A DNA stretch of 48,490 bases from an uncultured Bacilli bacterium (GCA_947629475.1 CANRDV010000002.1:1-48490), one strand, 5' to 3'. Numbered from the stretch's first letter, positions 2,958 through 24,976 are shown. Made by a program: numbers and translations. The notes: generated from the letters alone by a model not told the origin.

Positions 2958-3467
2958 TTATTTAATATTCTTAAAAATGTCAATCAAATAATCAACTATT
3001 TTTTCATTTTGCATCTCATCTAAACTATTAACAAGTCTATATTCACTATGCTCATCTTCTTGTAAAACAATATCAGAAATACTTTGATTATCTAATAATT
3101 CACATTCATACACTAATCTTGTAAATACTATATCCTTTTCTTTATCATAATTACTATCTTCATGTAAAATACTTTTAACTTCAATATCTAAATTAACTTC
3201 TTCTTTAGTTTCTCTAACAAGAGCATCTCTTGGTAATTCTCCTAACTCTACCATTCCACCAGGTATATCCCAATAATTAGGTAAAGAATTAGGTTTACTC
3301 CTTTTTATTTCAGTTCTTTTAATTAACAAATATTCACCATTTATTTCTAGTAAACCATGAACTATTAATCTATTCATAAATTTTACACTTTCCTTTATTT
3401 TTTTATCTAACTCATTTCTAAAACTAACTTTTTTATCACCAAATATAAATTTAACAAAACAATACAC
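2958..3467 (-). CDS. NUDIX hydrolase
   Basis: The Nudix box is GGMVELGELPRDALVRETKEEVNL (Gx5Ex7REUxEE). The true start may be the internal MNRLIVHG at about 3377. Confidence 0.8.
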   Translation of the reverse strand: MYCFVKFIFGDKKVSFRNELDKKIKESVKFMNRLIVHGLLEINGEYLLIKRTEIKRSKPNSLPNYWDIPGGMVELGELPRDALVRETKEEVNLDIEVKSILHEDSNYDKEKDIVFTRLVYECELLDNQSISDIVLQEDEHSEYRLVNSLDEMQNEKIVDYLIDIFKNIK

Positions 3468-3519
3468 AAAAATCGGTAATCTGTATATATTTTTGTTAAA
3501 ATAGATAAATTTTCTAACT

Positions 3520-3924
3520 CTAAATATATTCTATATCATTATCTTTGCACCATTCTATAGCAAGTTCCTTATACTTTTCCTCTCTAAATTTATACCAATC
3601 ATCAATAACATCAAAATTAATACAAGTATCTTTAAATCTTCTAAAGGCTCCTTTACCATTTATTGCTATATATAACTGATTATATAATCTTTCATCTTCT
3701 ATCCCATCAATAAATTCTGCCATCATACTATATTCGTCAATATAATACTTTGTTGGTAAAATTATATATTCTTCATATATTCTTTCTTTTTCTTCTTCAC
3801 TGATATCAATATAATCATCTATGTAAACAATTTCCAAATTTTCTGGATTTAAATAAGCAGTTGTATCCATTCCATCATTAACAAATTCTAAAGCCTCTAT
3901 TATATCGTTTAATTTTACTTTCAT
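3520..3924 (-). CDS. UPF0158-family protein, copy 1
   Basis: The ING KGAFRRFKD motif and the 134-aa size fit UPF0158. SD AGGAGAA overlaps the upstream stop. The gene is nearly identical to 20440-20844. Confidence 0.7.
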   Translation of the reverse strand: MKVKLNDIIEALEFVNDGMDTTAYLNPENLEIVYIDDYIDISEEEKERIYEEYIILPTKYYIDEYSMMAEFIDGIEDERLYNQLYIAINGKGAFRRFKDTCINFDVIDDWYKFREEKYKELAIEWCKDNDIEYI

Positions 3925-3934
3925 AAATTCTCCT

Positions 3935-5338
3935 TTATTCTATAACCTTATTATATTCATTTTTCATCTCAATAGGTGTCCATCCATTATTTACCCATAT
4001 TCTAGAATTATTATATATTTCCATTAAAAAACTTAATATTTCTTGGAAATTTTGCTCTGTAATCTCTACTCCATACTCTTTAAGTATTTCAATTGAATCA
4101 TTTATATAAGTATTTCCTAATCTATACATATCAGAAATTTTTTTAATAATAACTTCAATAGCATCAAATGGTATATGCATTTTCTTTAAATATTTTTTAA
4201 ATTCCGTTTTAGCTTCAGTCTCTTCATAATAATCATAATTAGAATATTTAAGTAATTCCTCTAATTTAAATTTCTTTCTCCTTATTTTTTCTTGCCTAGA
4301 AATAACATCATCTAATATTTTTTTTAAATTCCATTTCTTTAAAATTTTATTAACAAAATACGTGTTATGCTCTCTAAAAATTGTATCTATATTATCAACT
4401 CTATCACATGATGACAAAGCACAAGTAGAAACTTCTAATTCATCACCATTTCCATAATATAAACTATAATAATAATTTAAATAACTATCTGAAACAACTC
4501 CATATAATTCAATCATTGATCGAACTAAATTATACATCTTTGTATTTTCATCTACTATTTTTTGCATTTTCATAAAATCAATATTTTTAACAACATCATA
4601 AACATCATTGGTCATAGAAATATAAAATTTATTTTCTCTTCTAAATGTAAATACTAAGCCCGAAACTTCTAAGAAATGATATGCTTCCACACTTATATTA
4701 TTATCTTGAATAGTACCTTTATTTTCTATTAAATCTTTTAGCAAATTAAATTCTTTATCTATAAATCTTTCAATTAAATCCGTTAGTTTATCTTTATTTA
4801 TAAGTGAATTATAAACAATTTTAACAAGTTCTTTTTTAGGTTTATTACTTAATTTATTAACATACAAAAGATCACCTATATTTTTTAAATCACTTACTTT
4901 TAGAGTTTCAAGTATTTCTTTTAAATCTTTATTTATTGGAGTATTTTCTGCATGTTCTAAATTAAATTTTGCAGCAGTTGATATAGAATCTAATAATTTA
5001 TTAATTATTTGTTTTATTTCAGTTGGAATATAATAAGAATAATAATCTCCATTTTTATAAACAAAAACTAAAAGTGAGTCTAAATCTTGCATATAAAAAG
5101 CCTTCATTTCAGAATTTTCATAATACATTAATCTTTCAAAATACATTTTAGTAAAATCATCATCTTTAGATTCATTTAAACAAAACTCAAAATCATATAA
5201 AATATAATCTTTTAATTCATATATATTTTTAACTCCAAATTCTTTAAACTTTTCATTAAGTAAGTCCTTATCTAAGGCTCTTAAGGAAGATAATAAGTCT
5301 TCTTTTCCCCTTTTTATTAAATATTTTTCATAATTCAT
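3935..5338 (-). CDS. Hypothetical 467-aa protein, no recognisable catalytic motif
   Basis: A long ORF with SD TAGGAG lies 15 nt downstream of the HipA-like gene and is coupled to the UPF0158 gene. Confidence 0.6.
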   Translation of the reverse strand: MNYEKYLIKRGKEDLLSSLRALDKDLLNEKFKEFGVKNIYELKDYILYDFEFCLNESKDDDFTKMYFERLMYYENSEMKAFYMQDLDSLLVFVYKNGDYYSYYIPTEIKQIINKLLDSISTAAKFNLEHAENTPINKDLKEILETLKVSDLKNIGDLLYVNKLSNKPKKELVKIVYNSLINKDKLTDLIERFIDKEFNLLKDLIENKGTIQDNNISVEAYHFLEVSGLVFTFRRENKFYISMTNDVYDVVKNIDFMKMQKIVDENTKMYNLVRSMIELYGVVSDSYLNYYYSLYYGNGDELEVSTCALSSCDRVDNIDTIFREHNTYFVNKILKKWNLKKILDDVISRQEKIRRKKFKLEELLKYSNYDYYEETEAKTEFKKYLKKMHIPFDAIEVIIKKISDMYRLGNTYINDSIEILKEYGVEITEQNFQEILSFLMEIYNNSRIWVNNGWTPIEMKNEYNKVIE

Positions 5339-5353
5339 ATTTTACTCCTATTT

Positions 5354-6538
5354 TTAATTACTATTTAAAACTAATTCTTTTAATTTATTAATTTGTCTAT
5401 TCAATAAAATACATAATCTTTCTATTCTTCTATCACTTATTTTTGTTAAATCTTGATATTGATGTAATAAATTATTAAACCATTCAACTATACCATCTAA
5501 TTTACTTATATCTATTCTTTTTAAATTCTTTACAATTTTTATTATTTCATCAAAAGGTTTTATTTCATAGAAAAATCTTCCATTACCAGAAATAAGTATA
5601 TCTTCTTCATCATAATATTCAATTTTTAAACTTTCTCCGTTATCAAATATTGGAGCAACATCTAACCATTCCAAAGTATTAACATCTCTTATAATTCCAA
5701 AGTTATTTAAATGTCTATCTTCATTCATAATTATGTAATCTAAAATAAACATATTTTCAAGTTTCTCACGAGCATTTTTTATATTATGACTTTCTAATTT
5801 TTGGATATACTCTTCATAATCTTCTATACTATCATGTCTCTTCATATCATTTTTTATTTGAGAACAAGTAATAAATTCTGTATCTTTAGTAATAAAGCAA
5901 GGACATTTAGATACTACTATATCTTTATATGTATCTATCTTATATTCTACATGTTTAAAACCTAATCTCTTACATATTTCACTAGCTAATGCTTCATTAA
6001 AAGGCTGCAATATTTCAGTTTTATACCCACTTTTTAATAAATATCTTGTTCCATTTTCAATAATCCAAGCTTTCTTTAACATTCCGTCTGTTGTATTATT
6101 TGGTGTTTTTAAAGATTCCTCTTTTGTTATTTTTTTACTATTAGTTTCAAAAGATGCTTCCATAAACTCAGCATAATCAAAATCATTATCAAAGAAATTA
6201 ATATCATCATAATTTATATTACTATCATATGGTTTTAACCAATATTGATCGGATAAAGATAATCCAAAAGCTTTATCTAACAGTTCATAAGGTGCAGTTA
6301 TATTTAATCTATGTAATAATAAATCTAATTTATCACGCCATGAAGGAATTCCTCTTCCTTTAAACCATTCACTTAAATTAGTTCTAAAAGAAGTATCATT
6401 TTCTATATAAAAACTTTTTAAAATATAGGGAACATAATCAATGTTCTTAACCTCATATATTTTAGTAAAAACACTTGTTGCATTATCATATTCAGCTATT
6501 AAGACTTCAATGTTTTTATTCATAAGTATACATTTCAT
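5354..6538 (-). CDS. HipA-like serine/threonine kinase (toxin-type)
   Basis: The motif MNEDRHLNNFGII matches the HipA C-terminal catalytic-loop signature (D-x-H-x-x-N-F). The size is about 395 aa. The likely start is the ATG at 6538, behind GAGGTGA. The ORF track starts at a GTG at 6547. Confidence 0.7.
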   Translation of the reverse strand: MKCILMNKNIEVLIAEYDNATSVFTKIYEVKNIDYVPYILKSFYIENDTSFRTNLSEWFKGRGIPSWRDKLDLLLHRLNITAPYELLDKAFGLSLSDQYWLKPYDSNINYDDINFFDNDFDYAEFMEASFETNSKKITKEESLKTPNNTTDGMLKKAWIIENGTRYLLKSGYKTEILQPFNEALASEICKRLGFKHVEYKIDTYKDIVVSKCPCFITKDTEFITCSQIKNDMKRHDSIEDYEEYIQKLESHNIKNAREKLENMFILDYIIMNEDRHLNNFGIIRDVNTLEWLDVAPIFDNGESLKIEYYDEEDILISGNGRFFYEIKPFDEIIKIVKNLKRIDISKLDGIVEWFNNLLHQYQDLTKISDRRIERLCILLNRQINKLKELVLNSN

Positions 6539-6553
6539 AGAAATCACCTCATT

Positions 6554-6619: not shown

Positions 6620-7815
6620 TAATTTATAATACATAGTGACCCCCAGGTTATTATGTATTTTTTTAAAAATGCGATATAATATAGGGCTAAAGGGAGGAGG
6701 TGAAAAATATGTGGACAAGTTATCAAGAAATGTATTTTAATATTGGTAACGAGAAAAAGCTAATCGATAAGAGATTAGAAATGGTAAGGTTTGCTAAAGA
6801 AAATGGAATAAAAAAAGCGGCAAGATTCTATTCATGTAGTAAGAATACAATAAAGAAATGGTATAAAAGATATGCGGCATATGGATTGAATGGATTGTTA
6901 GATAAATCAAGAAAACCTAAAAATAGTCCCAAAAGAATAAAACAAGAAGATGCCAATAAAATAATTGAAGTATCTAAATTGGCTAAAGAAAAGAAGAAAC
7001 ATATAACTGTAAAAAATGTTAGAAAAGCATCTGGAATAAATGATTATTCTGATGTAACAATAAATAGATATATCAATAAATCTGTTGGAAATAAAAGAAA
7101 TAAAAAACATGTTCTAAATTCTAGTGGAGATGTTAAATGGAAAAAGAAATTGCTTCCATGGCAATTAATTCAAGTAGATATAAAATATTTAACTGATATA
7201 GATAACCTTAAACCTTATTTTGTTAGTAGTAAAAATAACTATAAAGGTATAAAAGTAAAATATCAAATAACTGCTAGAGATGTAGCAACTGGATTTGCAA
7301 TAGTAGCATATTGTGAAGATAAATCTCTAACTTATACAACTATATTTTTGGAAAAAGTCTTATATCCATTTTTACAACAATTTAAAGGTTTAGATTTAAA
7401 GACAATAACCATTCAAACCGATAATGGTCAAGAATTTACAAATAAATATAAAAGAACAAAATATCAAAATCCTGTTGATTCTTCTTTCACAATATTTATT
7501 GATGATAAGTTTAAAAAACATAGAACAAACACTCCATCTCATCCTACTGCTGATAGTGATGTTGAAACTTTTCATTGGTCAATTGAAAGAGATTGCCTTG
7601 CTTGGGATGATATTGTTGATGATGAATTTTTAATTAAATATACTAATCTTTATATGCAAGAGTATTGGAATTCTATGATTAAAATAAGAGGATATTCTCC
7701 TATTGATAAATTAAAAGAGACATATGATTTATCCAATATCGAATATCCTATGCCCCAAATATTAAATGTGTAATCTCCCACAGATCACGTTTAATATTAT
7801 ACACTAAATCCAATA
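6620..7815 (+). mobile_element. IS481-like insertion sequence, ends not resolved
   Basis: A single transposase ORF with its own TATAAT (6675-6680). I could see only weak terminal inverted-repeat similarity (tataata..gtga at about 6622-6640 versus about 7785-7810). Confidence 0.4.
6709..7773 (+). CDS. DDE transposase, IS481-like (HTH plus rve integrase core)
   Basis: The N-terminal HTH is AARFYSCSKNTIKKWYKRYAAYGLNGLLDKSRKPKNSP. DDE-type blocks are VDIKYL, TDNGQEF and HWSIERD. SD AGGGAGGAGG lies 8 nt before the ATG at 6709. Confidence 0.75.
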   Translation: MWTSYQEMYFNIGNEKKLIDKRLEMVRFAKENGIKKAARFYSCSKNTIKKWYKRYAAYGLNGLLDKSRKPKNSPKRIKQEDANKIIEVSKLAKEKKKHITVKNVRKASGINDYSDVTINRYINKSVGNKRNKKHVLNSSGDVKWKKKLLPWQLIQVDIKYLTDIDNLKPYFVSSKNNYKGIKVKYQITARDVATGFAIVAYCEDKSLTYTTIFLEKVLYPFLQQFKGLDLKTITIQTDNGQEFTNKYKRTKYQNPVDSSFTIFIDDKFKKHRTNTPSHPTADSDVETFHWSIERDCLAWDDIVDDEFLIKYTNLYMQEYWNSMIKIRGYSPIDKLKETYDLSNIEYPMPQILNV

Positions 7816-7816
7816 A

Positions 7817-7960
7817 ATATACAAATTTTAAAAATTCTTTGATTCTTTCTTATAAGAAAGAATGCCTGTCCGGCTAGGACATTTGCAAACCTTTCCTGGC
7901 TTCTTTGATTACTTTCTTTTCCATAAAAGAAAGTAATGCCTGCACGGCTAGTGCAAATAA
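7817..7960 (+). repeat. Tandem pair of double-hairpin units of about 55 nt, homologous to the ISL3-internal module at 24643-24760
   Basis: Units lie at 7835-7889 and 7901-7958. Each has an AT hairpin (ctttctt..aagaaag) and a GC hairpin: gtcc-ggcta-ggac at 7868-7880 and gcac-ggcta-gtgc at 7942-7954. Confidence 0.7.
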
Positions 7961-8224
7961 AGTTGAAAGGAATTTAATTAATTATGAAATTATTATTATT
8001 AAAATTATACTTATTAGATATTCAAATGTTTTTTCTATCTTTAGAATTAAAATACTTAAAATTTAAAGCTAATAGAATATCTAAAAAACAATTACCATTT
8101 TAAGCCAATTACAATTTACATCAACTTATTTTTAAAAAAATCGCCTTATGACGATTCTTTCGTTTTGCAATTTTTAGTCATTATGTGTTGACAAAAATCA
8201 TTTGATTAACTTTTACTTTAGTTA

Positions 8225-8325
8225 TTAGTAATTATCATTATTTCACCACTTTTTATCGTTATATGATAATTTCAGGTGAAAATAAAGTATTTTTTACTAA
8301 AATATAATTTAATGACAAACTAAAA
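8225..8325 (-). pseudogene. Remnant of an abiEi paralog: promoter/operator plus the first 6 codons, then a stop
   Basis: 8225-8325 aligns with 22927-23027, including ttttcacc...ggtgaaaa, tatgataat and the ATG ATA ATT ACT AAT start. The reading frame ends after MIITNN. Confidence 0.55.
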
Positions 8326-8396
8326 GATACCTTTAAGTACCTTTATAGATTTAATTTATTATATCTTTCCTTTAGTATATATATTCACATATGACT

Positions 8397-8424
8397 ACAA
8401 AAAAAGATGCTAATTATCACATCT
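8397..8424 (-). terminator. Weak terminator-like hairpin at the helD stop
   Basis: The stem is agatg/catct (8405-8409 and 8420-8424), followed by a 7-nt U run on the minus strand. The stem is only 5 bp. Confidence 0.3.
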
Positions 8425-10618
8425 ATTTTCTTAATACTTTACTTGATTCATCATATTTTTTTTTTACATCACCTATTAAAGGTTTAACTAATTCTTTATT
8501 ATAAAGTACATTTAACTCATGTAAGGCTCTAGTCATTGCAACATAAAGTAACTTCATATCAATTTGTTTACTTGAATCATATACTCCTTCCGTTGCATCA
8601 CTTATTATAACAGCATCAAATTCTAATCCTTTAGCCAAATAACTAGTTATTGTACATATACCACCATCATACTTAGTATCACTATCAGTTATATTAGTTA
8701 CTTTAATACCTAACTTTTCTAAATTTAAACTAATTATTTGAGCTTCCTTTTCCTCTTTACAAATTATTGCAATTGAACTATAACCTTTTTCAATATAACT
8801 CTTTAATACTTTATTAATTATTAACATTTGATTATCATTAAAATCAATATAATTTACATCAATTCCATGTCTTATTACAGGTTCAGCTGTTGAAAATTTC
8901 AAATATTCTGTTAAATTATTAGCTGAATTCATTATTTCAGTCGTTGTTCTATAACTTTTTTTCAAATATTTAATACTACAATCACCATCAAAGGTTGTTT
9001 CTATTACCCTATCCCAATCTGATATTCCCCGATATTCATAAATTGATTGGGCTAAATCACCAAATATACTAAATGTCGCTTTTGGCATTAATCTTTTCAA
9101 AGCAAAAAAATTAAATTCTCCAAAATCTTGAGCTTCATCAACAACTACCTGTCGATAATTTTCATAATTTTTACTACCAAAAATTCGATAATATAAATAC
9201 ATAAGAGCTGCTAAATCTTCAAATTCTATTTTTTTAGATTTAAGATCACTAATATTTTCCTTAACTTCATTTTTAATATTATATTTATTAGTATCTAAAT
9301 ATAAATTTATATTTTTTAGAAATTCTATATATAAAGTTATTATTTTAGGACTTCCACCACTAAAATATTTTTTCAAACTTTGATGACATCCATTATTAAT
9401 CTCTTTCTCGATTGCATCTATTTTTTTTCTTTCTTTAACAGCATCATCACCATTCATTAACTTAATTTTCTTATAAAATTCATCATGAATTCTATTTAAT
9501 AATTCTTGCTGATGTTCTTTAATATATCTTTCAATTATTAAAATAGCTCTTTCTATTTTTTTATTTATTATACTATAATCTAAGGCTTCTTTATCTAAAT
9601 CCTCATATATATCTTTAATAAATTTACTATCAAGAATTTCATAGCCTTTGATTTCAAAATTAGTAGTTGGAACAATTCTTGTCTCAAAATTATTAATAAA
9701 TTTATCTAATATTCTTTTAAATGCCATTGAAACTTTTAATCTTTGATAAAATAATTGTTCGGGATTAGTAATTGATTTAATTAATTTATCTTTATCTGAA
9801 ATTAAAGTAAACTCTATTCCTAATAAATCCTTTATTATTTCATCGTAAGTCAATTGGTTGACATCATCAACATCTAAATCAGGTAAAACTCCTGAAATAT
9901 AATTAACAAAGAATTTATTTGGTCCTATTACTAAATATTGTTCAGGTTTTATATTTTTTATATTATTATAAACAAGATAAGCAACTCTATGAAGAGCAAC
10001 TGTAGTTTTTCCACTTCCAGCAACTCCTTGAATAATAATATTATTGGAAATTTCATCTCTAATTATAGCATTTTGTTCTGCTTGAATAGTTGCTACAATA
10101 TTCTTTAATCTATTATCAGCACTAGTACCTAAATATGGTTTTAAAAAATCATCATTAGAAACTGTATCAACATCTTGAAATTCTTTTAATTCTCCATCTT
10201 CAATTTCATATTGTCTCTTTAAAGTTAAATTTCCCTTTATTACTCCACCTGGAGCCTTATAAGATGCTTCTCCAATATTACTATCATAATACATTGATGC
10301 AATAGGAGCTCTCCAATCAACTGTTACTAAATTATTATCTTCATCAAAAACTCCAATTTTTCCTATATAACACTCTTCTTCTTTCTTTAAATCATCACTT
10401 GTAAAATCTATTCTTGCAAAATAAGGCTTTTTTTGAGTTTTTTTCATTAAATTTAATCTTTTAGTAAACTCTCTAAGTAAACTTTCTAAAAGGATTGGAT
10501 TATTTCCATACATTCTTGGTAAAGCATCCAATCTAAGTTCAGTATCCTCAATTATTCCTTTAAATCTTTCTAATGTATTACTCAAATATTTTTTTTCTTC
10601 AATAAAATTTTTATACAT
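8423..10618 (-). CDS. helD: HelD, the RNA polymerase-associated UvrD/Rep-like helicase (helicase IV family)
   Basis: The segment KKPYFARIDF...YIGKIGVFD...VDWRAPIASMYYD...KNIVATIQAEQNAIIR...IQGVAGSGKTTVALHRVAYL is colinear with B. subtilis HelD. The C-terminal helicase motifs VDEAQD, KKSYRTT and GLEFDAV are present. Confidence 0.85.
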   Translation of the reverse strand: MYKNFIEEKKYLSNTLERFKGIIEDTELRLDALPRMYGNNPILLESLLREFTKRLNLMKKTQKKPYFARIDFTSDDLKKEEECYIGKIGVFDEDNNLVTVDWRAPIASMYYDSNIGEASYKAPGGVIKGNLTLKRQYEIEDGELKEFQDVDTVSNDDFLKPYLGTSADNRLKNIVATIQAEQNAIIRDEISNNIIIQGVAGSGKTTVALHRVAYLVYNNIKNIKPEQYLVIGPNKFFVNYISGVLPDLDVDDVNQLTYDEIIKDLLGIEFTLISDKDKLIKSITNPEQLFYQRLKVSMAFKRILDKFINNFETRIVPTTNFEIKGYEILDSKFIKDIYEDLDKEALDYSIINKKIERAILIIERYIKEHQQELLNRIHDEFYKKIKLMNGDDAVKERKKIDAIEKEINNGCHQSLKKYFSGGSPKIITLYIEFLKNINLYLDTNKYNIKNEVKENISDLKSKKIEFEDLAALMYLYYRIFGSKNYENYRQVVVDEAQDFGEFNFFALKRLMPKATFSIFGDLAQSIYEYRGISDWDRVIETTFDGDCSIKYLKKSYRTTTEIMNSANNLTEYLKFSTAEPVIRHGIDVNYIDFNDNQMLIINKVLKSYIEKGYSSIAIICKEEKEAQIISLNLEKLGIKVTNITDSDTKYDGGICTITSYLAKGLEFDAVIISDATEGVYDSSKQIDMKLLYVAMTRALHELNVLYNKELVKPLIGDVKKKYDESSKVLRK

Positions 10619-10642
10619 AGATAAAACCTCCTATCTATATCA

Positions 10643-11080
10643 TTATTTAATATAATTCATTTTTTCTAAAGCATATATAGCAAAAGGTGATAATTGGTCT
10701 TTAGATAAATCTTTAATTGAATACCAATTAGCTCCCTCAGAATCCAAACCATCTGCATCGCTTTTTAAATTAACTTCATTAGTTTCAACTAAATATAAAA
10801 TTCCTATATGATGTAAATCTTCAAATAAGTCTTTTTCCATTTCCCATTTTATATTAGTTGCCGTAACATCAAATAAACTATATTTACTTATTTTAATTCC
10901 AGCTTCCTCCATTATCTCTCTTTCTAATGTAACACAAGGAAGTTCGGTATGTTCAATTCCTCCTCCTGGCAAATCAAGTTTACCTTTATATCCTCCTCGA
11001 GCTTTTTTTACTAAGGCTATTTTATTATCCTTTATGATAATTCCATATGCACCAACATGAGTTTTTACAATTTCTTTCAT
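10643..11080 (-). CDS. NUDIX hydrolase
   Basis: The Nudix box is GGGIEHTELPCVTLEREIMEEAGI. The likely start is the ATG at 11080, behind AAGGGAGA. Confidence 0.8.
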   Translation of the reverse strand: MKEIVKTHVGAYGIIIKDNKIALVKKARGGYKGKLDLPGGGIEHTELPCVTLEREIMEEAGIKISKYSLFDVTATNIKWEMEKDLFEDLHHIGILYLVETNEVNLKSDADGLDSEGANWYSIKDLSKDQLSPFAIYALEKMNYIK

Positions 11081-11098
11081 TCTATCTTCTCCCTTCAA

Positions 11099-12013
11099 TT
11101 ATTTATTTAAAAAAATATTATTTTTTAAAACATCATTATTAAGTAAATTATACCAATTCAACCAATAATCTTTTTTTTGATTTTTATCATATAAATCTAT
11201 TTTTCCTATTTCATGCAAATAAATTTTCTCTAATAAAACTTTTAATATATAGTAATCAAACATTTCTTTCATTTGTTGAGCATTATTTTTATTTAAACAC
11301 TTTTTAATAATTTTTTTACATAATATATAATTAAACCTACCATTCTTATAACATAATTTCAATAACATACTAATATATTCATATTCTTTTGGAGCAATTA
11401 TCGTCTCATCAAAGTCTATTATTGCTAAATCCTTTTTATCCCATAATAGATTTGTTAAAGAAAGATCTCCATGTATTAAATATAATTTATATTTTTGAAT
11501 ATTAATTTTTAATTTATCATATTTTTCTATAATATTGTTGACAATATCTTCATCTAATTTACTAATTCTTATCTTTTTTAAATCTTGTCGATATTTATTA
11601 ACTTTGTAAAAAATAGTATCTTTATAATCAACCCTAAGTACTTCTGTATCAATTAAATTTATTTTTTCTACCAATAGATTTATATGTTTTTGATTTAACC
11701 ACGATAAATTCCTATAATCTATATATTCATACAATTCTATTTTAGCAGTATTAGACTTATACTTCATTAATATTTTTGGAGTTTTTATATTATTAGCTTC
11801 GCAGTTTTTTAATAATTTATTTTTTAATTTATCATTGCATTTAGTCATATAATACTTTACAACATATTTTTTTCTATTACAAGTTTCTAAAAAATATACT
11901 TTATTTGAAATTCCTTTTTTTATTCTTTTTAGTCTTTTTATTGAAATATTATTTTTTATTAAAAAATAGCTAATATCATTTTCTATATTTAAATTCTTCA
12001 ATAGTTTTTTCAT
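11099..12013 (-). CDS. Aminoglycoside/choline-kinase-family phosphotransferase (APH fold)
   Basis: The catalytic loop LIHGDLSLTNLLW and the metal-binding IIDFDE are present. The start is uncertain (12037 or 12013) and overlaps the upstream GT gene. Confidence 0.65.
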   Translation of the reverse strand: MKKLLKNLNIENDISYFLIKNNISIKRLKRIKKGISNKVYFLETCNRKKYVVKYYMTKCNDKLKNKLLKNCEANNIKTPKILMKYKSNTAKIELYEYIDYRNLSWLNQKHINLLVEKINLIDTEVLRVDYKDTIFYKVNKYRQDLKKIRISKLDEDIVNNIIEKYDKLKINIQKYKLYLIHGDLSLTNLLWDKKDLAIIDFDETIIAPKEYEYISMLLKLCYKNGRFNYILCKKIIKKCLNKNNAQQMKEMFDYYILKVLLEKIYLHEIGKIDLYDKNQKKDYWLNWYNLLNNDVLKNNIFLNK

Positions 12014-13160
12014 ATATATCAGCCATTCTTTCAACAATTATTTCAGGGCTACATTTTTGAATAATATAATTTCTTGAATTTACACTTATTTTTTTTCTTA
12101 ACTCTTTATTTTGACATAACATTAACATTTTAGAAGCCAAATCATTATAATCTTGATTTTTAAATAAAAGCCCCGATACTTGATTTTCAATCATCTCTTT
12201 AACACCAGTATTATTACTTGCAATAATTGGCAATTCATTTAATAGCATTTCCTGAGCAACATATGGATAATTATCAAATATTGAAGGTATAATTCCCATT
12301 AAACAATTAGCATAATAATTATTCAGTTTTGAATTTTCTATATGACCTAAAAATTCTAAATTACTATGATATTTTTTAGGTATTATATCTTTTATATATT
12401 TAATCATTGATATTTCTTTATCATTACGCTTTGTATCTTTGCCTATAAATAAAAATTTAATATCTTTATTATCTGTTTTATCCATAAATATAGTTATAGC
12501 TTTTGCTAAAATATCTACCCCTTTTCTTTGTTCTAAACTACCAACATATAAAATTATAGGAGTATCATGATTACCAGTACTTTTAATTAGATCGACATTA
12601 CATGGATTAGGAACAACTTTTATTTTTGAATAATTTAAATCTAAATAGTATTTTTTTAATTTTTGTAAAAGAATATTTGAACACGAAATTATTCTATCAG
12701 CATTATAAATAACATCTTTTTCCCATTGGAGCATTTTTTCATTTAACTCGTTATCCCCTATACCACGTTTATTATAATGTTTCCATATACATAAAGGTGT
12801 ATGTAATTTCACGAGTATTGGAATTTTTCGTTCATGGATATATTTTACTATTTCAGCCCCCCATTCAGGAGTTTCTATAATATCAATTTGATTATTATTA
12901 ACTAATTCTATAACTATATTTTTTATTTTTTCCCTATATTTTTCATAATCAGATATTTTTTTATTTGAAATAGGATTGTATATTCTAATAACTTTAACTT
13001 TTCCATCATAATAAACTTTATCTTCTTTAAGTCCACGAGTAATAACTATTACTTCATGTCCAATTTTGGTTAATTCTTGTCCCAATATTTTTTGATAAGT
13101 TGCAATCCCTCCAAAATTTGTTTCTTCAGGATATTCCTCACTAATTAAACAAACTTTCAT
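11976..13160 (-). CDS. Family 4 glycosyltransferase (GT-B fold)
   Basis: The N-terminus is MKVCLISEEYPEETNFGGIATY..., followed by EQRKGVDIL and an E-x7-E-like C-terminal block. The start ATG overlaps the upstream stop (TAATG). Confidence 0.8.
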   Translation of the reverse strand: MKVCLISEEYPEETNFGGIATYQKILGQELTKIGHEVIVITRGLKEDKVYYDGKVKVIRIYNPISNKKISDYEKYREKIKNIVIELVNNNQIDIIETPEWGAEIVKYIHERKIPILVKLHTPLCIWKHYNKRGIGDNELNEKMLQWEKDVIYNADRIISCSNILLQKLKKYYLDLNYSKIKVVPNPCNVDLIKSTGNHDTPIILYVGSLEQRKGVDILAKAITIFMDKTDNKDIKFLFIGKDTKRNDKEISMIKYIKDIIPKKYHSNLEFLGHIENSKLNNYYANCLMGIIPSIFDNYPYVAQEMLLNELPIIASNNTGVKEMIENQVSGLLFKNQDYNDLASKMLMLCQNKELRKKISVNSRNYIIQKCSPEIIVERMADIYEKTIEEFKYRK

Positions 13161-16241: not shown

Positions 16242-16308
16242 ATAACATCACCACAACTTATTTACCTATATTATACATTTAATAAACATTATTTTCAATA
16301 AAAGTAGT

Positions 16309-16839: not shown

Positions 16840-16848
16840 TAAACTTCC

Positions 16849-17943: not shown

Positions 17944-18013
17944 ATTATTTTTCCTTTCTTTTAAAATTTGCTATTTACTTTTAAATTTGTTAAAATTAAT
18001 TTAGGTGATTGAA

Positions 18014-18509: not shown

Positions 18510-19613
18510 TTATTTACTTTCTATAACAATAACCGGAACCAGCATTTCTTCTTTAGTTATGCCACTATGATCTGCTTTTAATGGTTTAAACTTCGTATTT
18601 GTAATTGTATATCTAATATTTAAATTACTATTACCTATTAAGATAACATCTCCTAAATAACTATCAATTCTTTCATGTTTATTTCCAGAACCTAAAAGTT
18701 CTAATTTTAAAAACTCATCTTTATCATAAATTAGAAATTTATCTTGAAAATATTTCTTAATTAATTCTTTAAATAATTCCTTTTTATTATCTTTTAAGAA
18801 AATTGATACAAATCTTGATTCAATAGAAGGTGGTCTTTTTAAACAATCATCTATATCTTTATATTCATTTAAATAAACTTCTTCAATATCTAAAGCTCCA
18901 TGGTCAGCAGTAACAATAAAAATAGTATTAGAAAGTTCACTTGCTAACTTTTCTAAATTATCATTTATATTTTTTAGTTCCTTTTTTACTTCTTGACTAT
19001 TAATTCCATATTTATGAATTAAAGAATCAGGTTCAGTCCAATAAGCTGATACTAAATTTCTATTAGTATTATTACAAGCATTTCTTATGCCATCACATAT
19101 CTTTGTAAAAGAGTTTTCTTCTTTTTTAGAAAAATCTGGAAACACTTTAATGTATTTAACATCCTTATTTTTCTTTACAATTTTTTCATATATAGTTTCA
19201 TATTCTAAATCTTCTATTTTATCTACTACTTTTTCACCTGTATAAAAATCACATCCTGAAAAAAGTTCTATCATACGATCATATTCTTTAAAATAAGGCA
19301 TCCAACCTACCCATCCACTTTCATAAGGTGATAAACCCGAATGAATCGAAGTGGTTGCAACTGTTGTTGTAGGTGGGAAAACTGAAGTTACATTTGTTAA
19401 TAAATTTTCTTTTAAAAACTTTAATTCCTTACTATAAATTTCTAAAATATTACTACCTAAAGCATCCAATATTAAATAAACAACATTTTTATAATCATTA
19501 TCTAGTTTATTATCAAGTACATCTAAAGAAGAATATTTCCCTTTTAGTCCATATTTTTTTAAAATTGATGAACTAACTTGTAAAAGACATCTATCGTAAT
19601 CTGGTTTAAACAC
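18510..19613 (-). CDS. Alkaline-phosphatase-superfamily enzyme (phosphodiesterase / nucleotide pyrophosphatase-like)
   Basis: Metal-ligand blocks are LDALGSN, FPPTTTVATTSIHSG, VTADHG and ADHSG. Confidence 0.6.
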   Translation of the reverse strand: MFKPDYDRCLLQVSSSILKKYGLKGKYSSLDVLDNKLDNDYKNVVYLILDALGSNILEIYSKELKFLKENLLTNVTSVFPPTTTVATTSIHSGLSPYESGWVGWMPYFKEYDRMIELFSGCDFYTGEKVVDKIEDLEYETIYEKIVKKNKDVKYIKVFPDFSKKEENSFTKICDGIRNACNNTNRNLVSAYWTEPDSLIHKYGINSQEVKKELKNINDNLEKLASELSNTIFIVTADHGALDIEEVYLNEYKDIDDCLKRPPSIESRFVSIFLKDNKKELFKELIKKYFQDKFLIYDKDEFLKLELLGSGNKHERIDSYLGDVILIGNSNLNIRYTITNTKFKPLKADHSGITKEEMLVPVIVIESK

Positions 19614-19681: not shown

Positions 19682-20413
19682 TTATTTTATCTTCTTTTCT
19701 TCTATATAATTTAACCATTTATTATAAAATTCATCAAAATTATTTATCTTTTCAATACCAACATTTAAAACATCTCTTATATCTACATTATGACAAATTT
19801 CAATATAATTCCAAATTTTTTCAAATATATCTGGTTTATTACACATTATTAAAGAATATATTGCATATAAACATGCTTCATCTAAATTAATTCCTAAATC
19901 ATTTTTTATATTATTAAAACTAACTTCATAAGTATCATATACTAGATCCGAATCATCATACTCAGGATTACCAACTTCTTCACAAGTGTAACTTGTATTA
20001 ATAATAGCTTCAAATAAAGTAATAACTTTACTATATTCTTTATATAGAATCAATTTTCTAATTAAATCATAAGTATTATCTAAAACAAATTCAAGTTCTG
20101 AAGAAGGATAATATACATAGTCTACATCAGCATCATAATAACTATAAGTACCTGTTTCATAAGAATAACTTTGAAAACATATTTCTCCATCTTCTATTTT
20201 TTTATAATCATCAAGTATCTTATTATATTCATTTAAAGTATCATCATCTAATTTAATTTTTTCACCTTTAAAATTTTTAATTTTACATATTATATATTCA
20301 TAATAGTTTACTGGCAAATTATCTACTAACTCTTTTATTAAATCTTTAATTTCAGAAATAGATAAATTTTCTAATTCTTTACTTAATTCTATTTCAAAAT
20401 TTTCTTTATCCAT
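19682..20413 (-). CDS. Hypothetical acidic 243-aa protein
   Basis: The ORF lies 26 nt downstream of UPF0158 copy 2. I recognised no motif. Confidence 0.55.
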   Translation of the reverse strand: MDKENFEIELSKELENLSISEIKDLIKELVDNLPVNYYEYIICKIKNFKGEKIKLDDDTLNEYNKILDDYKKIEDGEICFQSYSYETGTYSYYDADVDYVYYPSSELEFVLDNTYDLIRKLILYKEYSKVITLFEAIINTSYTCEEVGNPEYDDSDLVYDTYEVSFNNIKNDLGINLDEACLYAIYSLIMCNKPDIFEKIWNYIEICHNVDIRDVLNVGIEKINNFDEFYNKWLNYIEEKKIK

Positions 20414-20439
20414 TTTTCAAAAACTCCCTTACTCTAAAT

Positions 20440-20844
20440 CTAAATATATTCTATATCATTATCTTTGCACCATTCTATAGCAAGTTCCCTGTATTTTTCA
20501 TCTCTAAATTTATACCAATCATCAATAATATCAAAATTAATACAAGTATCTTTAAATCTTCTAAAGGCTCCTTTACCATTTATTGCTATATATAACTGAT
20601 TATATAATCTTTCATCCTCTATCGTATCAATAAATTCTGCCATCATACTATATTCATCAATATAATACTTTGTTGGTAAACTTATATATTCTTCATATAT
20701 TCTTTCTTTTTCTTCTTCACTGATATCAATGTAATCATCTATGTAAACAATTTTCAAATTTTCTGGATTTAAATAAGCAGTTGTATCCATTCCTAAATTA
20801 ACAAATTCTAAAGCATCTATTATATCATTTAATTTTACTTTCAT
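20440..20844 (-). CDS. UPF0158-family protein, copy 2
   Basis: My manual alignment gives about 17 mismatches over 405 nt against 3520-3924. SD AGGAGAAG is present. Confidence 0.7.
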   Translation of the reverse strand: MKVKLNDIIDALEFVNLGMDTTAYLNPENLKIVYIDDYIDISEEEKERIYEEYISLPTKYYIDEYSMMAEFIDTIEDERLYNQLYIAINGKGAFRRFKDTCINFDIIDDWYKFRDEKYRELAIEWCKDNDIEYI

Positions 20845-20855
20845 AACTTCTTCTC

Positions 20856-21452
20856 CTACTTTACTTCATAGGCATTCTTTATTAAAAGAATTAAGCCTTT
20901 TAAATTTTTATTATCTGTTTTTATATTATATTTTCGATAATCATATTTTTTACTAGTTTCATATCCAGGCGTAAAATGACTATTAGAATATCCTAATTTA
21001 TCAGTTTCTAATACTATCTCTTTTAATTCAATGCAAGATAGATCATCTAACATTCCTAATCCTTCACCTTCTACTATATAAGGATATTTTTGAGCATCAC
21101 TATATTTTTCTAAGAAAGCCTCTCCTAAATAAGTAATTTCAAAGGTTGTTGGGGAACCATAATCATATTCCATTTCCATTGTATCATTTTCTTTTAGCTT
21201 AAGACTACTTAATTTTGTAGTAACTGCATTAAGTAACTTTTCATAATCAGGATTTTCTCTTGGACAAATCCAACAATCATATATATTATCTTTATAAGTT
21301 ATGTCATATAAATGATATGCTAATGAATTAAAAGATGCTAAGATTGTATAAGCTAAATCTGCAATTGTCATTCTATCAGTTATTTCAATAACCCTCCATA
21401 TTTTATTTTCTAACCCTTCTATTCCAACTTTAAATTTTAATACTTTATCCAT
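20856..21452 (-). CDS. pRiA4b ORF-3-like domain protein
   Basis: The N-terminus FKVGIEGLENKIWRVIEITDRMTIADLAYTILASFNSLAYHLYDI matches the characteristic start of the PRiA4_ORF3 domain (..L.G..P.IWRr..vp...tl.dLh..Iq.amgw...HL..F). Confidence 0.6.
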   Translation of the reverse strand: MDKVLKFKVGIEGLENKIWRVIEITDRMTIADLAYTILASFNSLAYHLYDITYKDNIYDCWICPRENPDYEKLLNAVTTKLSSLKLKENDTMEMEYDYGSPTTFEITYLGEAFLEKYSDAQKYPYIVEGEGLGMLDDLSCIELKEIVLETDKLGYSNSHFTPGYETSKKYDYRKYNIKTDNKNLKGLILLIKNAYEVK

Positions 21453-21494: not shown

Positions 21495-22358
21495 CTAATC
21501 ACTTAAATTTTCTGTAATACTAATAAAGAAATCACTATTCCACATATCTAAACTATCTACATCTTTAATAAATGGTATAACATCTTCTTTAGCAGCTTGA
21601 TAATCTATTTCTTTAAATTTCTTAATTAATAATTGTTTTAATGTATTTATATCAAAATTACTATTAGAATCAAGATAATTTGAAGCAATTAATTTATTTT
21701 TAACTAATTCTAAATTAACTTTAGTATCATTAGCTAAAAAGAATATATAGTCATATAAATCCCTTCCCTTAATTCGATTATTCCAACTTCTACATAAAAT
21801 AGCATGGATTTTTCCAGCGAATAAAGATTCTTTATCATATAATTTTATTTGATGAGGACTTGGCAATAATTTATATTGATCTTCATAAGTAGCACCACTA
21901 GGTGGATTAACATCTACTTCAAATTTTATTTTGATACTTTTTAGTATATGATCATATCCATGACTAGTTTCATTTGGAAAAAATTTTAATATTAATTCTA
22001 AAGTATCACCTTTCACAAAAGCCGTAGATATATTAGAAATATTATTTTTAATTTTACCATTAATCTCTAAATTTAATCCATAAGCATTTAATTCCTTTTT
22101 AATATAAATAAAATATTTACTTAAATCAAAATCTTTATTTGGAGAAGTTAAAGCAAAATCTAAATCTTCAGAAAATCTATCTAAATTATAAAAAATTCTA
22201 AGAGCCGAACCTCCATAAAAGGCTACTTCTTTAAAAAAGTTTCCTCTTGATAAACCAGATAAAATTATTTCTTGAATAATTTCTTTTAAAGCATTTATCT
22301 CATCATTTGTATTTTTAATTTCATATTTTGATAGCATTTGGCTAATTATATTATTCAT
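21495..22358 (-). CDS. abiEii: AbiEii/AbiGii-family nucleotidyltransferase toxin (type IV TA)
   Basis: The motif is FYGGSALRIFYNLDRFSEDLDFAL. The gene overlaps the upstream AbiEi gene by 8 nt. Confidence 0.8.
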   Translation of the reverse strand: MNNIISQMLSKYEIKNTNDEINALKEIIQEIILSGLSRGNFFKEVAFYGGSALRIFYNLDRFSEDLDFALTSPNKDFDLSKYFIYIKKELNAYGLNLEINGKIKNNISNISTAFVKGDTLELILKFFPNETSHGYDHILKSIKIKFEVDVNPPSGATYEDQYKLLPSPHQIKLYDKESLFAGKIHAILCRSWNNRIKGRDLYDYIFFLANDTKVNLELVKNKLIASNYLDSNSNFDINTLKQLLIKKFKEIDYQAAKEDVIPFIKDVDSLDMWNSDFFISITENLSD

Positions 22359-22941
22359 TTATTTTCCTCCTCATATATTTAGCTAATAACTTGATATTAG
22401 TAGAATGATATAAGTTACTTAATTTTTCTATTTTTTCAACATTTAATTTATTAAATTCATAAATATCTATTCTTAAATCATCAAACAACATATGTTCTAA
22501 TTCAGAATAACTATTCAACGGATTTAAAGTATACATTTTATCACATAATGATTTTTCAGGAGATGCTATTTGATAAAAATAATTATTTTCTTCTTTTAAA
22601 ATTATTTCTTCTGGATAAGCAAGTTTAGGAACATCCCTATATGTAAATACTCCAAACTTTGTATTAAATACTTTTTTCTTTTTTTTATCAAAAGTTGCAC
22701 AGGTTATTGTATCTACTCGTTCAGGAATTAATTGATAAAAAGATAGGGCATATTCAAAGGAAATATAAGATGGTCCATAAATACTTCCAGCTAGTAAGTA
22801 TCCTTTAGTTGTTGGATCTGTTTCATATAAACCATTTACAATTTTTGTTAATTTTCTATCTCTAACTTCTCTTGATAACTTGGTATTTTTATTTGAATAT
22901 TTTGCTAAATTATTTTTAGCTAAATCATTAGTAATTATCAT
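22351..22941 (-). CDS. abiEi: AbiEi-family antitoxin / transcriptional regulator
   Basis: The position, the 196-aa size and the KLTKIVNGLYE block support the call. The likely start is the ATG at 22941 (MIITND), behind AGGTGA. Confidence 0.7.
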   Translation of the reverse strand: MIITNDLAKNNLAKYSNKNTKLSREVRDRKLTKIVNGLYETDPTTKGYLLAGSIYGPSYISFEYALSFYQLIPERVDTITCATFDKKKKKVFNTKFGVFTYRDVPKLAYPEEIILKEENNYFYQIASPEKSLCDKMYTLNPLNSYSELEHMLFDDLRIDIYEFNKLNVEKIEKLSNLYHSTNIKLLAKYMRRKINE

Positions 22942-22942
22942 A

Positions 22943-22989
22943 TTTTCACCTCTTTTTATCATTATATGATAATTTCAGGTGAAAATCAA
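22943..22989 (-). promoter_or_regulatory. abiE promoter with nested inverted repeats (putative AbiEi operator)
   Basis: On the minus strand the -35 is TTGATT (22984-22989), the spacer is 17 bp and the -10 is TATAAT (22961-22966). Inverted-repeat arms ttttcacct (22943-22951) and aggtgaaaa (22977-22985) flank the inner palindrome ttatcat-tat-atgataa over the -10. Confidence 0.55.
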
Positions 22990-23071
22990 GCATTTTTTTT
23001 AAAAAATAATTTAATGACAAAATAAAAGGCTCTACAATTTCTAGTGGGGTGACCAATTGGCTTCAAATCCA

Positions 23072-23122
23072 TATAAAATAAGGGAAAAATTAAAGTTTTC
23101 AGTAACTTAAAAATTTTCCCTT
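23072..23122 (-). terminator. Terminator-like hairpin after the ISL3 transposase gene
   Basis: The stem aagggaaaa / ttttccctt (23080-23088 and 23114-23122) is 9 bp, followed by AUUUUAU on the minus strand. Confidence 0.4.
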
Positions 23123-23164
23123 ATTTTTTTCACCTTTTTATTCTAATTTCTAAAAAAAATATAT

Positions 23165-24562
23165 TCATCGTTTCTTATCTTTTTTAGAAAAAACTTTTCT
23201 ATCACTTGAGTAACTTTGATGTAAAATTGCTAATGCTCTTAATCTAAAAAATTTAAAATTTTTATATCCAAAACTCCTATCTACTATTTTATCAATTATG
23301 TTATTATTTGCTTCTGTAAATCCATTTGAATATCTTTCATCTAGAAAAGAATTTACTATCGGATCTAACCAATTTTCTATTGTTTTTGAAGCTTCAATCA
23401 TTTCTGGTATTTTACTATCCTTACACTTTTTAATCCAATTCTGTATTTCTTCTTTGGCATTTTCATATTTTACATTATATACAATTCTTAAGAATTCCTC
23501 TTTTAAAGTATAAGCAACTTGTAAATCTTTATCTACACCTAGAATTTCATTTAATCTATCTATTCTATATATTTCTACCATTTTATTATTTATTTTAACT
23601 TTTATTTTACTATACCAATAATCATTATATTTATCAACTGGTTTCTTTTTTGTTAATCCTTTATTATATCTTTCTTCTAATTCTTCTCTTTTTTTCCTTT
23701 CTACTTTAGTTTCATTAAATGATTTCAATAGTAAACCTGTATTAAATCTATTTTTTACTATTTTATAATTTTTAGACTTCTTATCATTTTCATATTCATG
23801 TACCAATCTTATTCTAATTTTATCTAGACCTTTCGAAACATAACTGATATAATGAAATGGGTCGGCTACAAAAATTGCGTTCGGAAAACAAATTTTTACG
23901 ACCTCGTAATATGTTTTGTATAAATCACATATTACTGCTTTTACAGATGCTCTATTATTTACTTTAGAAAAGTATTTCAATAGAGCTTCTTTTCTTCTTG
24001 ATGGTAATATATCTAAAGTTACTCTATGTATTGGATCATTTAAAATAACAGAATACACTCCTTCTTCTGTATAGGTTGATACTTCATCTAAAGATATTAC
24101 TTCTGGTAAATTCTTTACTTCATCAGGATAATTTTTCATTGCCTCCAAAAATATCGCTCTTACTGTTGTTTCTGATACTTTATTATCAATAGAAATTTGT
24201 TTTATTGTTTTATCTCGATTTAAACAATCTTTTAGTATCAATTGCTTTAACTTTAATGAAACCGATTGATTCTTATTAGTTAATCCTAAATCTTCTGTAA
24301 ATGATTTATTACAAACCTTACATTCAAATCGTCTTTTATAAACTATTAAGTTGGTATGTTGCTCTGATGTTTTTAAGTAATTAACTTTGCTTGGTTTCAA
24401 GTAATCATGTATCTTATCGCTAAAATTATTGCAATATGGACATCTTACTTTTTTCTTTTTACTTTTTACATGAATATTTATTTCTCCTTTCTCTTCTTCA
24501 ATTTTGGTAATGTCTATACTTGAATCTAATTTTAATAGACATCTCATTTCTTCTTTTTTCAT
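23165..24562 (-). CDS. ISL3-family transposase
   Basis: The N-terminal zinc finger is CPYCNNFSDKIHDY...CKVCNKSF, followed by the ISL3 HTH and DDE regions. The protein is 465 aa. Confidence 0.9.
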   Translation of the reverse strand: MKKEEMRCLLKLDSSIDITKIEEEKGEINIHVKSKKKKVRCPYCNNFSDKIHDYLKPSKVNYLKTSEQHTNLIVYKRRFECKVCNKSFTEDLGLTNKNQSVSLKLKQLILKDCLNRDKTIKQISIDNKVSETTVRAIFLEAMKNYPDEVKNLPEVISLDEVSTYTEEGVYSVILNDPIHRVTLDILPSRRKEALLKYFSKVNNRASVKAVICDLYKTYYEVVKICFPNAIFVADPFHYISYVSKGLDKIRIRLVHEYENDKKSKNYKIVKNRFNTGLLLKSFNETKVERKKREELEERYNKGLTKKKPVDKYNDYWYSKIKVKINNKMVEIYRIDRLNEILGVDKDLQVAYTLKEEFLRIVYNVKYENAKEEIQNWIKKCKDSKIPEMIEASKTIENWLDPIVNSFLDERYSNGFTEANNNIIDKIVDRSFGYKNFKFFRLRALAILHQSYSSDRKVFSKKDKKR

Positions 24563-24642
24563 ACAACCTCTTTCTGTAACATCTATCTAGTGTTACTATA
24601 AAATTATCTCAAAAAAAAGAACTTATTGAAAGTCCTATTTTT

Positions 24643-24760
24643 CGTCTTGCCAGACAGGCTTTACTTTCTTTTACGGAAAAGAAAGTAAACAAAGAAGCCG
24701 AGAAGGGCATTATATATATGTCTCCGACGGCACTTTCTTTAAAAGAAAGTGGAAAGAATA
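24643..24760 (-). repeat. Double-hairpin module (two units) in the 5' leader region of the ISL3 transposase gene
   Basis: This is the reverse-complement homolog of 7835-7958. The AT hairpins are tactttctttt..aaaagaaagta and cactttctt..aagaaagtg. The GC hairpins are gtct-tgcc-agac (24644-24655) and gtc-tcc-gac (24720-24728). Confidence 0.7.
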
Positions 24761-24816
24761 ATTTTTTAAAATTTTTAAAGATATCTTATCTATATTAAAA
24801 TTTGTATATCAATCAA

Positions 24817-24976
24817 TACCCCAATAGAAATTGTAGAATTTTAAAAAAGCAACCCCAGCAAAAGGTGTAGTTTTTTCAAACTATCACCCCACTAGATATT
24901 GTTGCTTTTTTATTTTTTACCCCACTAAAAATCGTAAAGGGGGGAATTATTTCACCCCACTAAAAGTTGTAGAGCC
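24817..24976 (-). repeat. Five tandem repeats of about 34 bp, each carrying an ISL3 IR-like core
   Basis: Cores start at 24817 (taccccaatagaaattgtag), 24851 (aaccccagcaaaaggtgtag), 24885 (caccccactagatattgttg), 24918 (taccccactaaaaatcgtaa) and 24953 (caccccactaaaagttgtag). The last one is the terminal inverted repeat. Confidence 0.65.

Follow-up and report, generated by a model that had tools for sequence, protein, structure and literature searches.

Near-identical UPF0158 genes behind unrelated neighbours in a variable island of an uncultured Bacilli bacterium

Gene content of the two UPF0158 loci

The two UPF0158 genes described here lie in a 48,490-nt stretch of DNA from an uncultured Bacilli bacterium (GCA_947629475.1, CANRDV010000002.1:1-48490), referred to below as the window. 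The window has a G+C content of 25%; its first 25 kb are a variable island in which IS21, IS481-like and ISL3 elements occur, and housekeeping genes (MurA, RpiB) follow from about 25 kb on, together with an L10 leader, the sole match in an Rfam scan of the window. The island, which holds both UPF0158 copies, is hypervariable. No tRNA genes were found in the window, promoter scans gave matches no more numerous than in shuffled sequence, and no terminators were found inside either UPF0158 gene string.

The features of locus 1 and its surroundings are:

2958..3467, minus strand: Nudix hydrolase (Pfam NUDIX, E 2.5e-15; PADLOC PDC-S07), 52 nt downstream of copy 1
3513..3934, minus strand: full repeat at locus 1, consisting of the ORF, about 7 nt after the stop codon and the 10-nt spacer with the Shine-Dalgarno sequence; its partner is 20433-20854
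3520..3924, minus strand: UPF0158 copy 1, 134 aa, pI 4.2 (Pfam PF03682, E 1.5e-10)
3935..5338, minus strand: U467, a 467-aa protein without Pfam family, 10 nt upstream of copy 1
5354..6547, minus strand: HipA-like Ser/Thr kinase, first gene of locus 1 (Pfam HipA_C, 36 bits; cut-off 30.5)
6700..7773, plus strand: IS481-like transposase gene, directly upstream of the HipA-like gene and in the opposite orientation
8211..8368, minus strand: orphan abiEi 5' end with its upstream region, 85-90% identical to 22914-23028 and to a relative, L095

Those of locus 2 are:

18510..19613, minus strand: type I phosphodiesterase/nucleotide pyrophosphatase, downstream of U243
19682..20413, minus strand: U243, an acidic 243-aa protein without family, 26 nt downstream of copy 2
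20440..20844, minus strand: UPF0158 copy 2, 134 aa (Pfam PF03682), 17 nt and 8 aa different from copy 1
20856..21452, minus strand: PRiA4_ORF3 (MM3350-like) protein (Pfam, E 4.6e-18), 11 nt upstream of copy 2
21495-22358, minus strand: AbiEii (PADLOC, E 3e-99)
22351-22962, minus strand: AbiEi (PADLOC, E 6e-62)
23019..24917, minus strand: ISL3-family insertion sequence with terminal inverted repeats (transposase with Pfam match), directly upstream of abiEi

The first gene of locus 1 resembles the HipBA and PDC-M03 systems in having a HipA_C kinase core and a PADLOC match to PDC-M03A (E 6e-20), and its nearest solved structure is CtkA (E 1.8e-9). The likeness ends there, however: no HipB-like HTH antitoxin gene is adjacent, neither U467 nor UPF0158 has an HTH match in Pfam, and U467, UPF0158 and the downstream Nudix hydrolase match no described partner of such kinases.

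For U467, none of 121 homologs has a Pfam match. Its AlphaFold2 (AF2) model (pLDDT 90) contains three winged-helix-like units, each of three helices and a β-hairpin, and a fold search gives a hint in the same direction, with only weak matches to winged-helix-repeat proteins (TFIIH p52, MAGE and ScpB; E at least 0.13). Homology links U467 to SEC-C-tailed proteins encoded next to UPF0158 in Lachnospiraceae (hhalign probability 96.5%, E 9e-10, 312 columns), a group in which UPF0158-Nudix fusion proteins also parallel the Nudix gene behind copy 1. A 465-aa ORF near copy 2, considered as a relative of U467, is the ISL3 transposase and is not related to it.

In locus 2, the PRiA4_ORF3 protein matches the structure 2I1S in the PDB (E 4e-4), and the pair AbiEi/AbiEii (21495..22962) upstream of the PRiA4 module is a type IV toxin-antitoxin or abortive-infection pair. 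U243 gave no remote homology to U467, SWIM, PRiA4 or DUF6904-like neighbours. NCBIfam, PHROGs and PADLOC returned no match for UPF0158, U467, PRiA4 or U243; with PADLOC-DB v2, the only genes of the UPF0158 loci to be matched are those for the HipA-like kinase, the Nudix hydrolase, AbiEi and AbiEii. A putative HipA 3'-end remnant upstream of PRiA4 in the window was discarded, the spacer being homologous to that of L095 and the likeness to HipA an AT-rich chance resemblance.

Two near-identical genes with unrelated flanks

The initial annotation of this DNA described the 405-nt UPF0158 ORF at 3520-3924 as recurring at 20440-20844, and its coordinates, lengths and counts are all confirmed: in an ungapped comparison 17 of the 405 nt are mismatched (95.8% identity), and the proteins differ at 8 of 134 residues (94% identical). 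Six of the differing codons are synonymous only and eight are non-synonymous. The family assignment holds as well, both proteins scoring above the PF03682 gathering cut-off of 21.1 bits (41.7 and 41.4 bits, over residues 3-133). Extended to its full length (3513-3934 against 20433-20854), the repeat aligns over 422 nt with 95.3% identity. It is thus gene-sized, as had been noted, but its edges lie about 7 nt beyond the stop codon and some 10 nt before the ATG, with the Shine-Dalgarno region included, rather than about 10 nt past the stop and at the start codon. Beyond these edges the flanks of the two copies are not alignable and the upstream proteins have no similarity to one another; the flanking genes are therefore unrelated, as the annotation had it, and Pfam and PADLOC uphold the identities it gave them (HipA-like, the 467-aa protein, pRiA4b-ORF3-like and AbiEi/AbiEii). 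The gap to the upstream gene, put at about 10 nt for both, is 10 nt between U467 and copy 1 and 11 nt between PRiA4 and copy 2. The ratio dN/dS is 0.33 between the copies, compared with 0.17-0.27 between genomes, and both copies are intact and under purifying selection.

A repeat of this kind could also arise in assembly, from one UPF0158 gene placed twice or from a collapsed repeat joined wrongly, and one public contig, L094 (ENA ERZ27249136 NODE_25139), indeed looks like such a product, with the 3' end of PRiA4 followed by a UPF0158 gene of copy-2 type in its 5' two-thirds and of copy-1 type in its 3' third, and then by the Nudix gene. The switch of type in L094 falls, however, within the longest stretch that is identical between the copies (87 nt, nt 229-315), and L115, a contig from the same sample, breaks there; this points to a chimeric contig rather than to a fault in the window, and L094 was accordingly rejected as a natural recombinant, a chimera at the identical stretch being its most likely origin. 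Each locus recurs in independent metagenome assemblies, copy 1 in L112 and copy 2 in L081 and L082, where it is linked to PRiA4_ORF3 and U243; in five assemblies, U467 accompanies copy 1 every time. The 17 copy-diagnostic sites stay with the correct flanking genes in these independent assemblies, five of them in addition to L094, so that the pair is not an assembly artefact of the window; we regard that explanation as very improbable indeed. As L094 illustrates, metagenome contigs can be chimeric at gene-precise repeats.

Arrangements in relatives

The closest relatives are found in metagenome-assembled genomes and contigs of uncultured Bacilli from gut metagenomes (numbered L here), and they fall into four arrangements. 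Type A, HipA–U467–UPF0158, is that of copy 1 and of L001, which aligns with locus 1 continuously through the HipA–U467–UPF0158 junctions, at 81.8% identity over 3.1 kb. Type B, PRiA4 (198 aa)–UPF0158–U243–phosphoesterase, is that of copy 2 and of L081, L082, L087-L093 and L095; the pairing of PRiA4_ORF3 with UPF0158 is kept in L087-L093, L095, L127, L083 and L096. Type C has the order PRiA4 (332 aa)–SWIM (552 aa)–UPF0158–U244–508-aa protein–metallophosphoesterase, and type D, seen in L002, the order AbiEi–AbiEii–SWIM (519 aa)–UPF0158. U243 is conserved after UPF0158 in every locus of types B and C; NPP-type phosphodiesterases or metallophosphoesterases follow the modules of both types, and a metallophosphoesterase takes the place of the type I phosphodiesterase downstream of U243 in relatives.

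HipA-like kinases head the UPF0158-containing arrays of L001, L095 and L127. In L095 the HipA-like gene stands directly upstream of PRiA4–UPF0158–U243, and L127 has a single array, HipA–U463–55 aa–147 aa–PRiA4–UPF0158–U243–metallophosphoesterase, with only one UPF0158 gene. The unit PRiA4–UPF0158–U243 occurs without AbiE in L087-L093, L095, L127 and L083. Together, the single array of L127 and the AbiE-less type B loci indicate that the two loci of the window are pieces of a single, recurrent set of accessory genes.

These arrangements also bear on the relation to AbiE. In the window, a complete AbiEi-AbiEii pair stands directly upstream of PRiA4–UPF0158–U243, and the order AbiEii–X–UPF0158 recurs in L002, where X is a SWIM protein, and in L023, where it is a PLD-like/SF2-helicase protein. 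AbiE is defined as a two-gene system, however, and only about 4 of 72 loci (L002, L018, L023 and probably L007) have AbiEii no more than two genes away from UPF0158; since the UPF0158 module exists without AbiE, UPF0158 would be at most an optional add-on to it. AbiE is a neighbour of the copy 2 module and not a component of it, and the earlier placement of copy 2 in an AbiEi/AbiEii operon does not stand, the conserved unit PRiA4_ORF3–UPF0158–U243 being found without AbiE, or behind HipA as in L095.

Origin of the likeness between the copies

Between genomes UPF0158 genes are 82-91% identical whatever their context, compared with 96% for the two copies of the window. Copy 1 and its positional ortholog in L001 share only 83% identity, though the U467/UPF0158 junction is common to both; copy 2 is 87% identical to the gene of L087; and the nearest other lineage, L095, is 90% identical to copy 1 and 91% to copy 2, with dS values of 0.28 and 0.29, compared with about 0.10 between the copies. 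The paralogs resemble each other more than they do positional orthologs with conserved flanks and junctions, as expected of gene conversion. Since the distances between genomes are alike (82-87% identity) whatever the context, they do not demonstrate a deep split between type A and type B.

The pair had been taken for a recent, module-sized duplication; this is unlikely, given that the HipA–U467–UPF0158 junction occurs in a lineage about 18% diverged (L001) and the copies are only 4% apart. In its gene-sized form, this explanation would have UPF0158 alone copied in behind another, unrelated gene, with a new operon junction as the result. The restriction of the similarity to the ORF and about 10 nt on each side fits such an event, as does an island with three IS families and rearrangement scars; but both junctions predate the split of the copies, U467/UPF0158 being present in L001 at 82% nucleotide identity and the PRiA4/UPF0158/U243 junctions in L087 and L127 (84% each) and in L095 (89%), and neither copy is flanked by direct or inverted repeats or recombination sites. 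We thus hold it to be unlikely. Nor do the copies resemble integron or other site-specific cassettes, as there is no integrase next to them and the similarity ends within 10 nt of the ORF.

A duplication of the whole array followed by reciprocal loss, with UPF0158 as the only gene kept in both descendants, finds a suitable ancestor in the single array of L127, and the orphan abiEi 5' fragment (8211-8368) testifies to past duplication of larger segments in the window. This course of events needs four deletion end-points, each no further than about 10 nt from the UPF0158 ORF, however, and the U467/UPF0158 junction, common to the window and L001, predates a duplication at dS 0.10; we consider it improbable to the same degree.

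Gene conversion would fit the likeness of the copies better than a fresh gene-sized insertion: since the U467/UPF0158 junction is older than the split of the copies (dS about 0.10), a resident UPF0158 gene appears to have been overwritten by its paralog. The starting point would be an array as in related uncultured gut Bacilli (HipA-like kinase–U467–...–PRiA4_ORF3–UPF0158–U243–phosphoesterase), of which the two loci of the window would be two fragments; one resident copy would then have been replaced by the other in a non-reciprocal homologous exchange, at dS about 0.10, and each copy would since have gained mostly private substitutions. The exchange would look gene-precise because UPF0158 is the only sequence shared by the loci and a tract cannot extend past it. 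Against this course, the 17 differing sites are mostly private substitutions without a clear conversion tract, two of them being common to copy 2 and L095 and one to copy 1 and L001. No second genome holding both loci was found, and the case for conversion comes from this one genome.

The evolutionary behaviour of the pair is of a standard kind, the concerted evolution of dispersed paralogs. An example is that of the duplicated tuf genes of enterobacteria, which evolve in concert by gene conversion. As there, the paralogs of the window are far closer within the genome than to positional orthologs, the identity ends where homology ends, and both UPF0158 copies appear to remain functional; the differences are that the UPF0158 copies lie beside unrelated genes in an accessory island, and that a single homogenisation event can be inferred, with no tract structure visible. 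Gene-precise repeats in accessory islands can stem from gene conversion and not from cassette mobility.

The UPF0158 family

UPF0158 is a large family with almost no literature, comprising at least 4,319 clusters at 50% identity (E at most 1e-3) and including proteins of Chlamydia and Bacillus; among the best 150 cluster representatives, most members are single-domain proteins of 130-160 aa. In 55 homologs, G90, G92, A93, F94, R95, R96, F97, C101, W110, Y111, Y118, W125 and C126 are invariant. The two copies of the window are ordinary members of PF03682: both share the length of the family and its motif, GxGAFRRFKD...WYxFR...WC, and at the family level they show no difference from it.

The AF2 model of UPF0158 (pLDDT 93) has a small α/β N-terminal part and a C-terminal part of four helices, and these helices carry nearly all of the invariant residues. 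A fold search with the model in PDB and BFVD gave nothing better than E of about 0.1, and a sequence profile search of the PDB gave no match. For PF03682, neither an assigned function nor a solved structure nor a fold analogue was found in PDB, BFVD or the literature, and literature searches on UPF0158, PF03682, PRiA4_ORF3 and pRiA4b found nothing functional. The present locus offers testable handles on this family: a confident AF2 model, a short list of recurrent partners and fusions, and a natural experiment in which near-identical proteins accompany unrelated partners.

Plasmids seldom carry the family (12 of 72,556 records), and it was not found in 50,697 phage records. The proposal that UPF0158 is a portable accessory component is borne out as far as a movable gene in a hypervariable island is concerned, but finds no support in the plasmid and phage counts.

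Neighbours, fusions and possible roles

The gene neighbourhoods were surveyed in the 80 loci most similar to the query, a sample biased toward Bacillota, with ORFs predicted in this analysis. In 72 species-level loci the neighbours at positions -1 and +1 are mostly heterogeneous and include housekeeping genes. Four kinds of protein, a minority of the neighbours, stand out from this background, U467-like, large SWIM, PRiA4 and SEC-C proteins, which occur only within two genes of UPF0158 and in 0 of 648 more distant genes. The start and stop codons of UPF0158 and the adjacent gene often overlap, by 4-10 nt, as in an annotated Vescimonas record, where the gene for a SEC-C protein overlaps UPF0158 by 4 nt. 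UPF0158 is further found fused to NUDIX, GAF, ACT_7, GNAT, RibD_C, thioesterase, RloB and TPR domains. What is new here, the recurrent partner set and a candidate multi-gene array in gut Bacilli, is modest.

As to function, the initial annotation raised an adaptor, an immunity factor and a sensor, in operons headed by toxin-type enzymes. UPF0158 might accordingly be the cognate antitoxin, immunity or regulatory partner of the enzyme that heads the operon (the HipA-like kinase or AbiEii). This reading draws on the HipA-like kinases at the head of arrays in three other lineages, on the recurrence of AbiEii within two genes in the four loci named above, on the small size and acidity of UPF0158 and on the tight coupling of its gene to the upstream one. 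It also draws on an approximately twofold excess of PADLOC models matched by genes within two positions of UPF0158 over genes at least four positions away (114 against 59 per 140 proteins), a rough comparison that counts models, not proteins, and takes its distant genes from the same islands. Against this, AbiE has an antitoxin of its own in AbiEi; the UPF0158 module also occurs without AbiE or HipA, and no locus seen has UPF0158 and HipA as immediate neighbours; most members of the family have no toxin neighbour; and there is no PADLOC model for UPF0158. The proposed association with toxin-type genes recurs in other lineages as adjacency to HipA and AbiEii, but does not extend to most of the family. 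Moreover, UPF0158 does not co-vary with its partner, the 94%-identical copies following the unrelated U467 and PRiA4; taken with the diverse neighbours and fusions, this makes UPF0158 unlikely to be a cognate inhibitor of the upstream gene product, and an immunity role fits poorly. In all, we find a cognate partner of the toxin-type enzyme quite unlikely.

The SUKH-type immunity genes of polymorphic toxins offer a further comparison. These encode small, acidic cytoplasmic proteins and occur in multiple copies, with heterogeneous neighbourhoods, in variable islands. UPF0158 is likewise a small, acidic cytoplasmic protein, multicopy in a variable island with heterogeneous neighbours; however, the UPF0158 loci show neither a toxin domain nor a secretion signal nor co-variation of toxin and immunity protein, near-identical UPF0158 copies follow unrelated proteins, and the UPF0158 model has no fold match above threshold to known immunity proteins.

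As judged from gene context, a role as generic regulator or adaptor is more probable for UPF0158 than one as cognate antitoxin. Two 94%-identical proteins beside unrelated partners amount to a natural experiment, which argues for a function independent of the partner. UPF0158 would be a self-contained, non-enzymatic accessory subunit, translationally coupled to an adjacent larger protein (U467/SEC-C, SWIM, PRiA4_ORF3 or PLD-helicase), with which the tight coupling would ensure its co-production, or alternatively fused to small nucleotide- or CoA-handling enzymes or to ligand sensors. Its conserved C-terminal helical surface, rich in arginine and aromatic residues (GxGAFRRFKD...WYxFR...WC), would bind a common ligand or target and not the variable neighbour. 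The enzymes found in fusions and as neighbours suggest a connection with nucleotide or CoA chemistry. The recurrent adjacency to AbiEii and HipA would not be expected from a purely generic role, and it makes a defence-accessory role possible.

The explanation that joins these strands, to which we give somewhat better than an even chance, is that the two genes are functional paralogs homogenised by conversion, that their loci are fragments of one array, and that UPF0158 is an accessory subunit independent of its neighbours. A bolder proposal, tentative and on balance doubtful, is that the HipA-like kinase, U467, PRiA4_ORF3, UPF0158, U243 and the phosphoesterase (Nudix, NPP or metallophosphoesterase) form an undescribed conflict or defence system of gut Bacilli, with a portable sensor or regulator pair, 'X + UPF0158', that could attach to AbiE and PLD-helicase effectors in other Bacillota.

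Further features of the window and of related islands

The orphan abiEi 5' end at 8211-8368 adjoins the IS481-like gene and is not followed by abiE genes; it looks like a remnant or scar of rearrangement. The IS21-like element spans 62-2122 and encodes an IstA-type transposase (rve and Mu-transposase C), its IstB gene being seemingly split into the ORFs 62-478 and 465-893. At 7840-7962 there are two tandem units of about 60 nt with two hairpins each, ttctttctt...gaaagaa and tgcctgtccggctaggaca or tgcctgcacggctagtgca, and an inverted copy of this unit lies at 24635-24707, beside the ISL3 element; these units look like a REP- or MITE-like element.

Between the two loci, 8423-13750 on the minus strand holds a string of five genes (guanylate-kinase-like, GT4 glycosyltransferase, APH-like kinase, Nudix and UvrD-like helicase), in which the glycosyltransferase matches the GT4-conflict model and the APH-like kinase has a weak TCAD9 match; the string looks like a nucleotide-centred conflict system. 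Nudix hydrolase genes occur three times within 16 kb of the island (2958-3467, 10643-11098 and 18005-18508), each beside a different accessory module.

A class I tRNA synthetase of the Trp/Tyr type (tRNA-synt_1b), a GNAT acetyltransferase and an ABC-F ATPase adjoin each other at 14616-17943, inside the island. In L083, too, the PRiA4/SWIM/UPF0158 array has a tRNA-synt_1b gene at its flank, and ThrRS or HisRS genes flank related islands. HipA-family kinases target aminoacyl-tRNA synthetases, so that the presence of these genes may be more than synteny.

Homologs of U467 at 65-71% identity (L104-L111, L121-L126) mark the edge of a defence hot spot. A short Amidase_3 gene always comes after them, followed by variable systems such as type I RM, Fic, a MutH-like nuclease with a methylase, or an OLD-family AAA_15/TOPRIM protein with a UvrD-like helicase (Gabija-like); a small DUF6429 gene, not HipA, often precedes the U467 homolog.

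Two repeats lie outside the island. At 27560-27638 there are about 2.2 tandem copies of a 36-nt unit, CCGCTTTATCAACTCCC(A/G)ATTTAA(G/T)GGCTGGGTACA, which match each other at 95% and are G+C-rich against the 25% G+C of the genome; and the 562-aa ORF at 35825-37513 contains two internal direct repeats of about 630 nt that are 74-87% identical.
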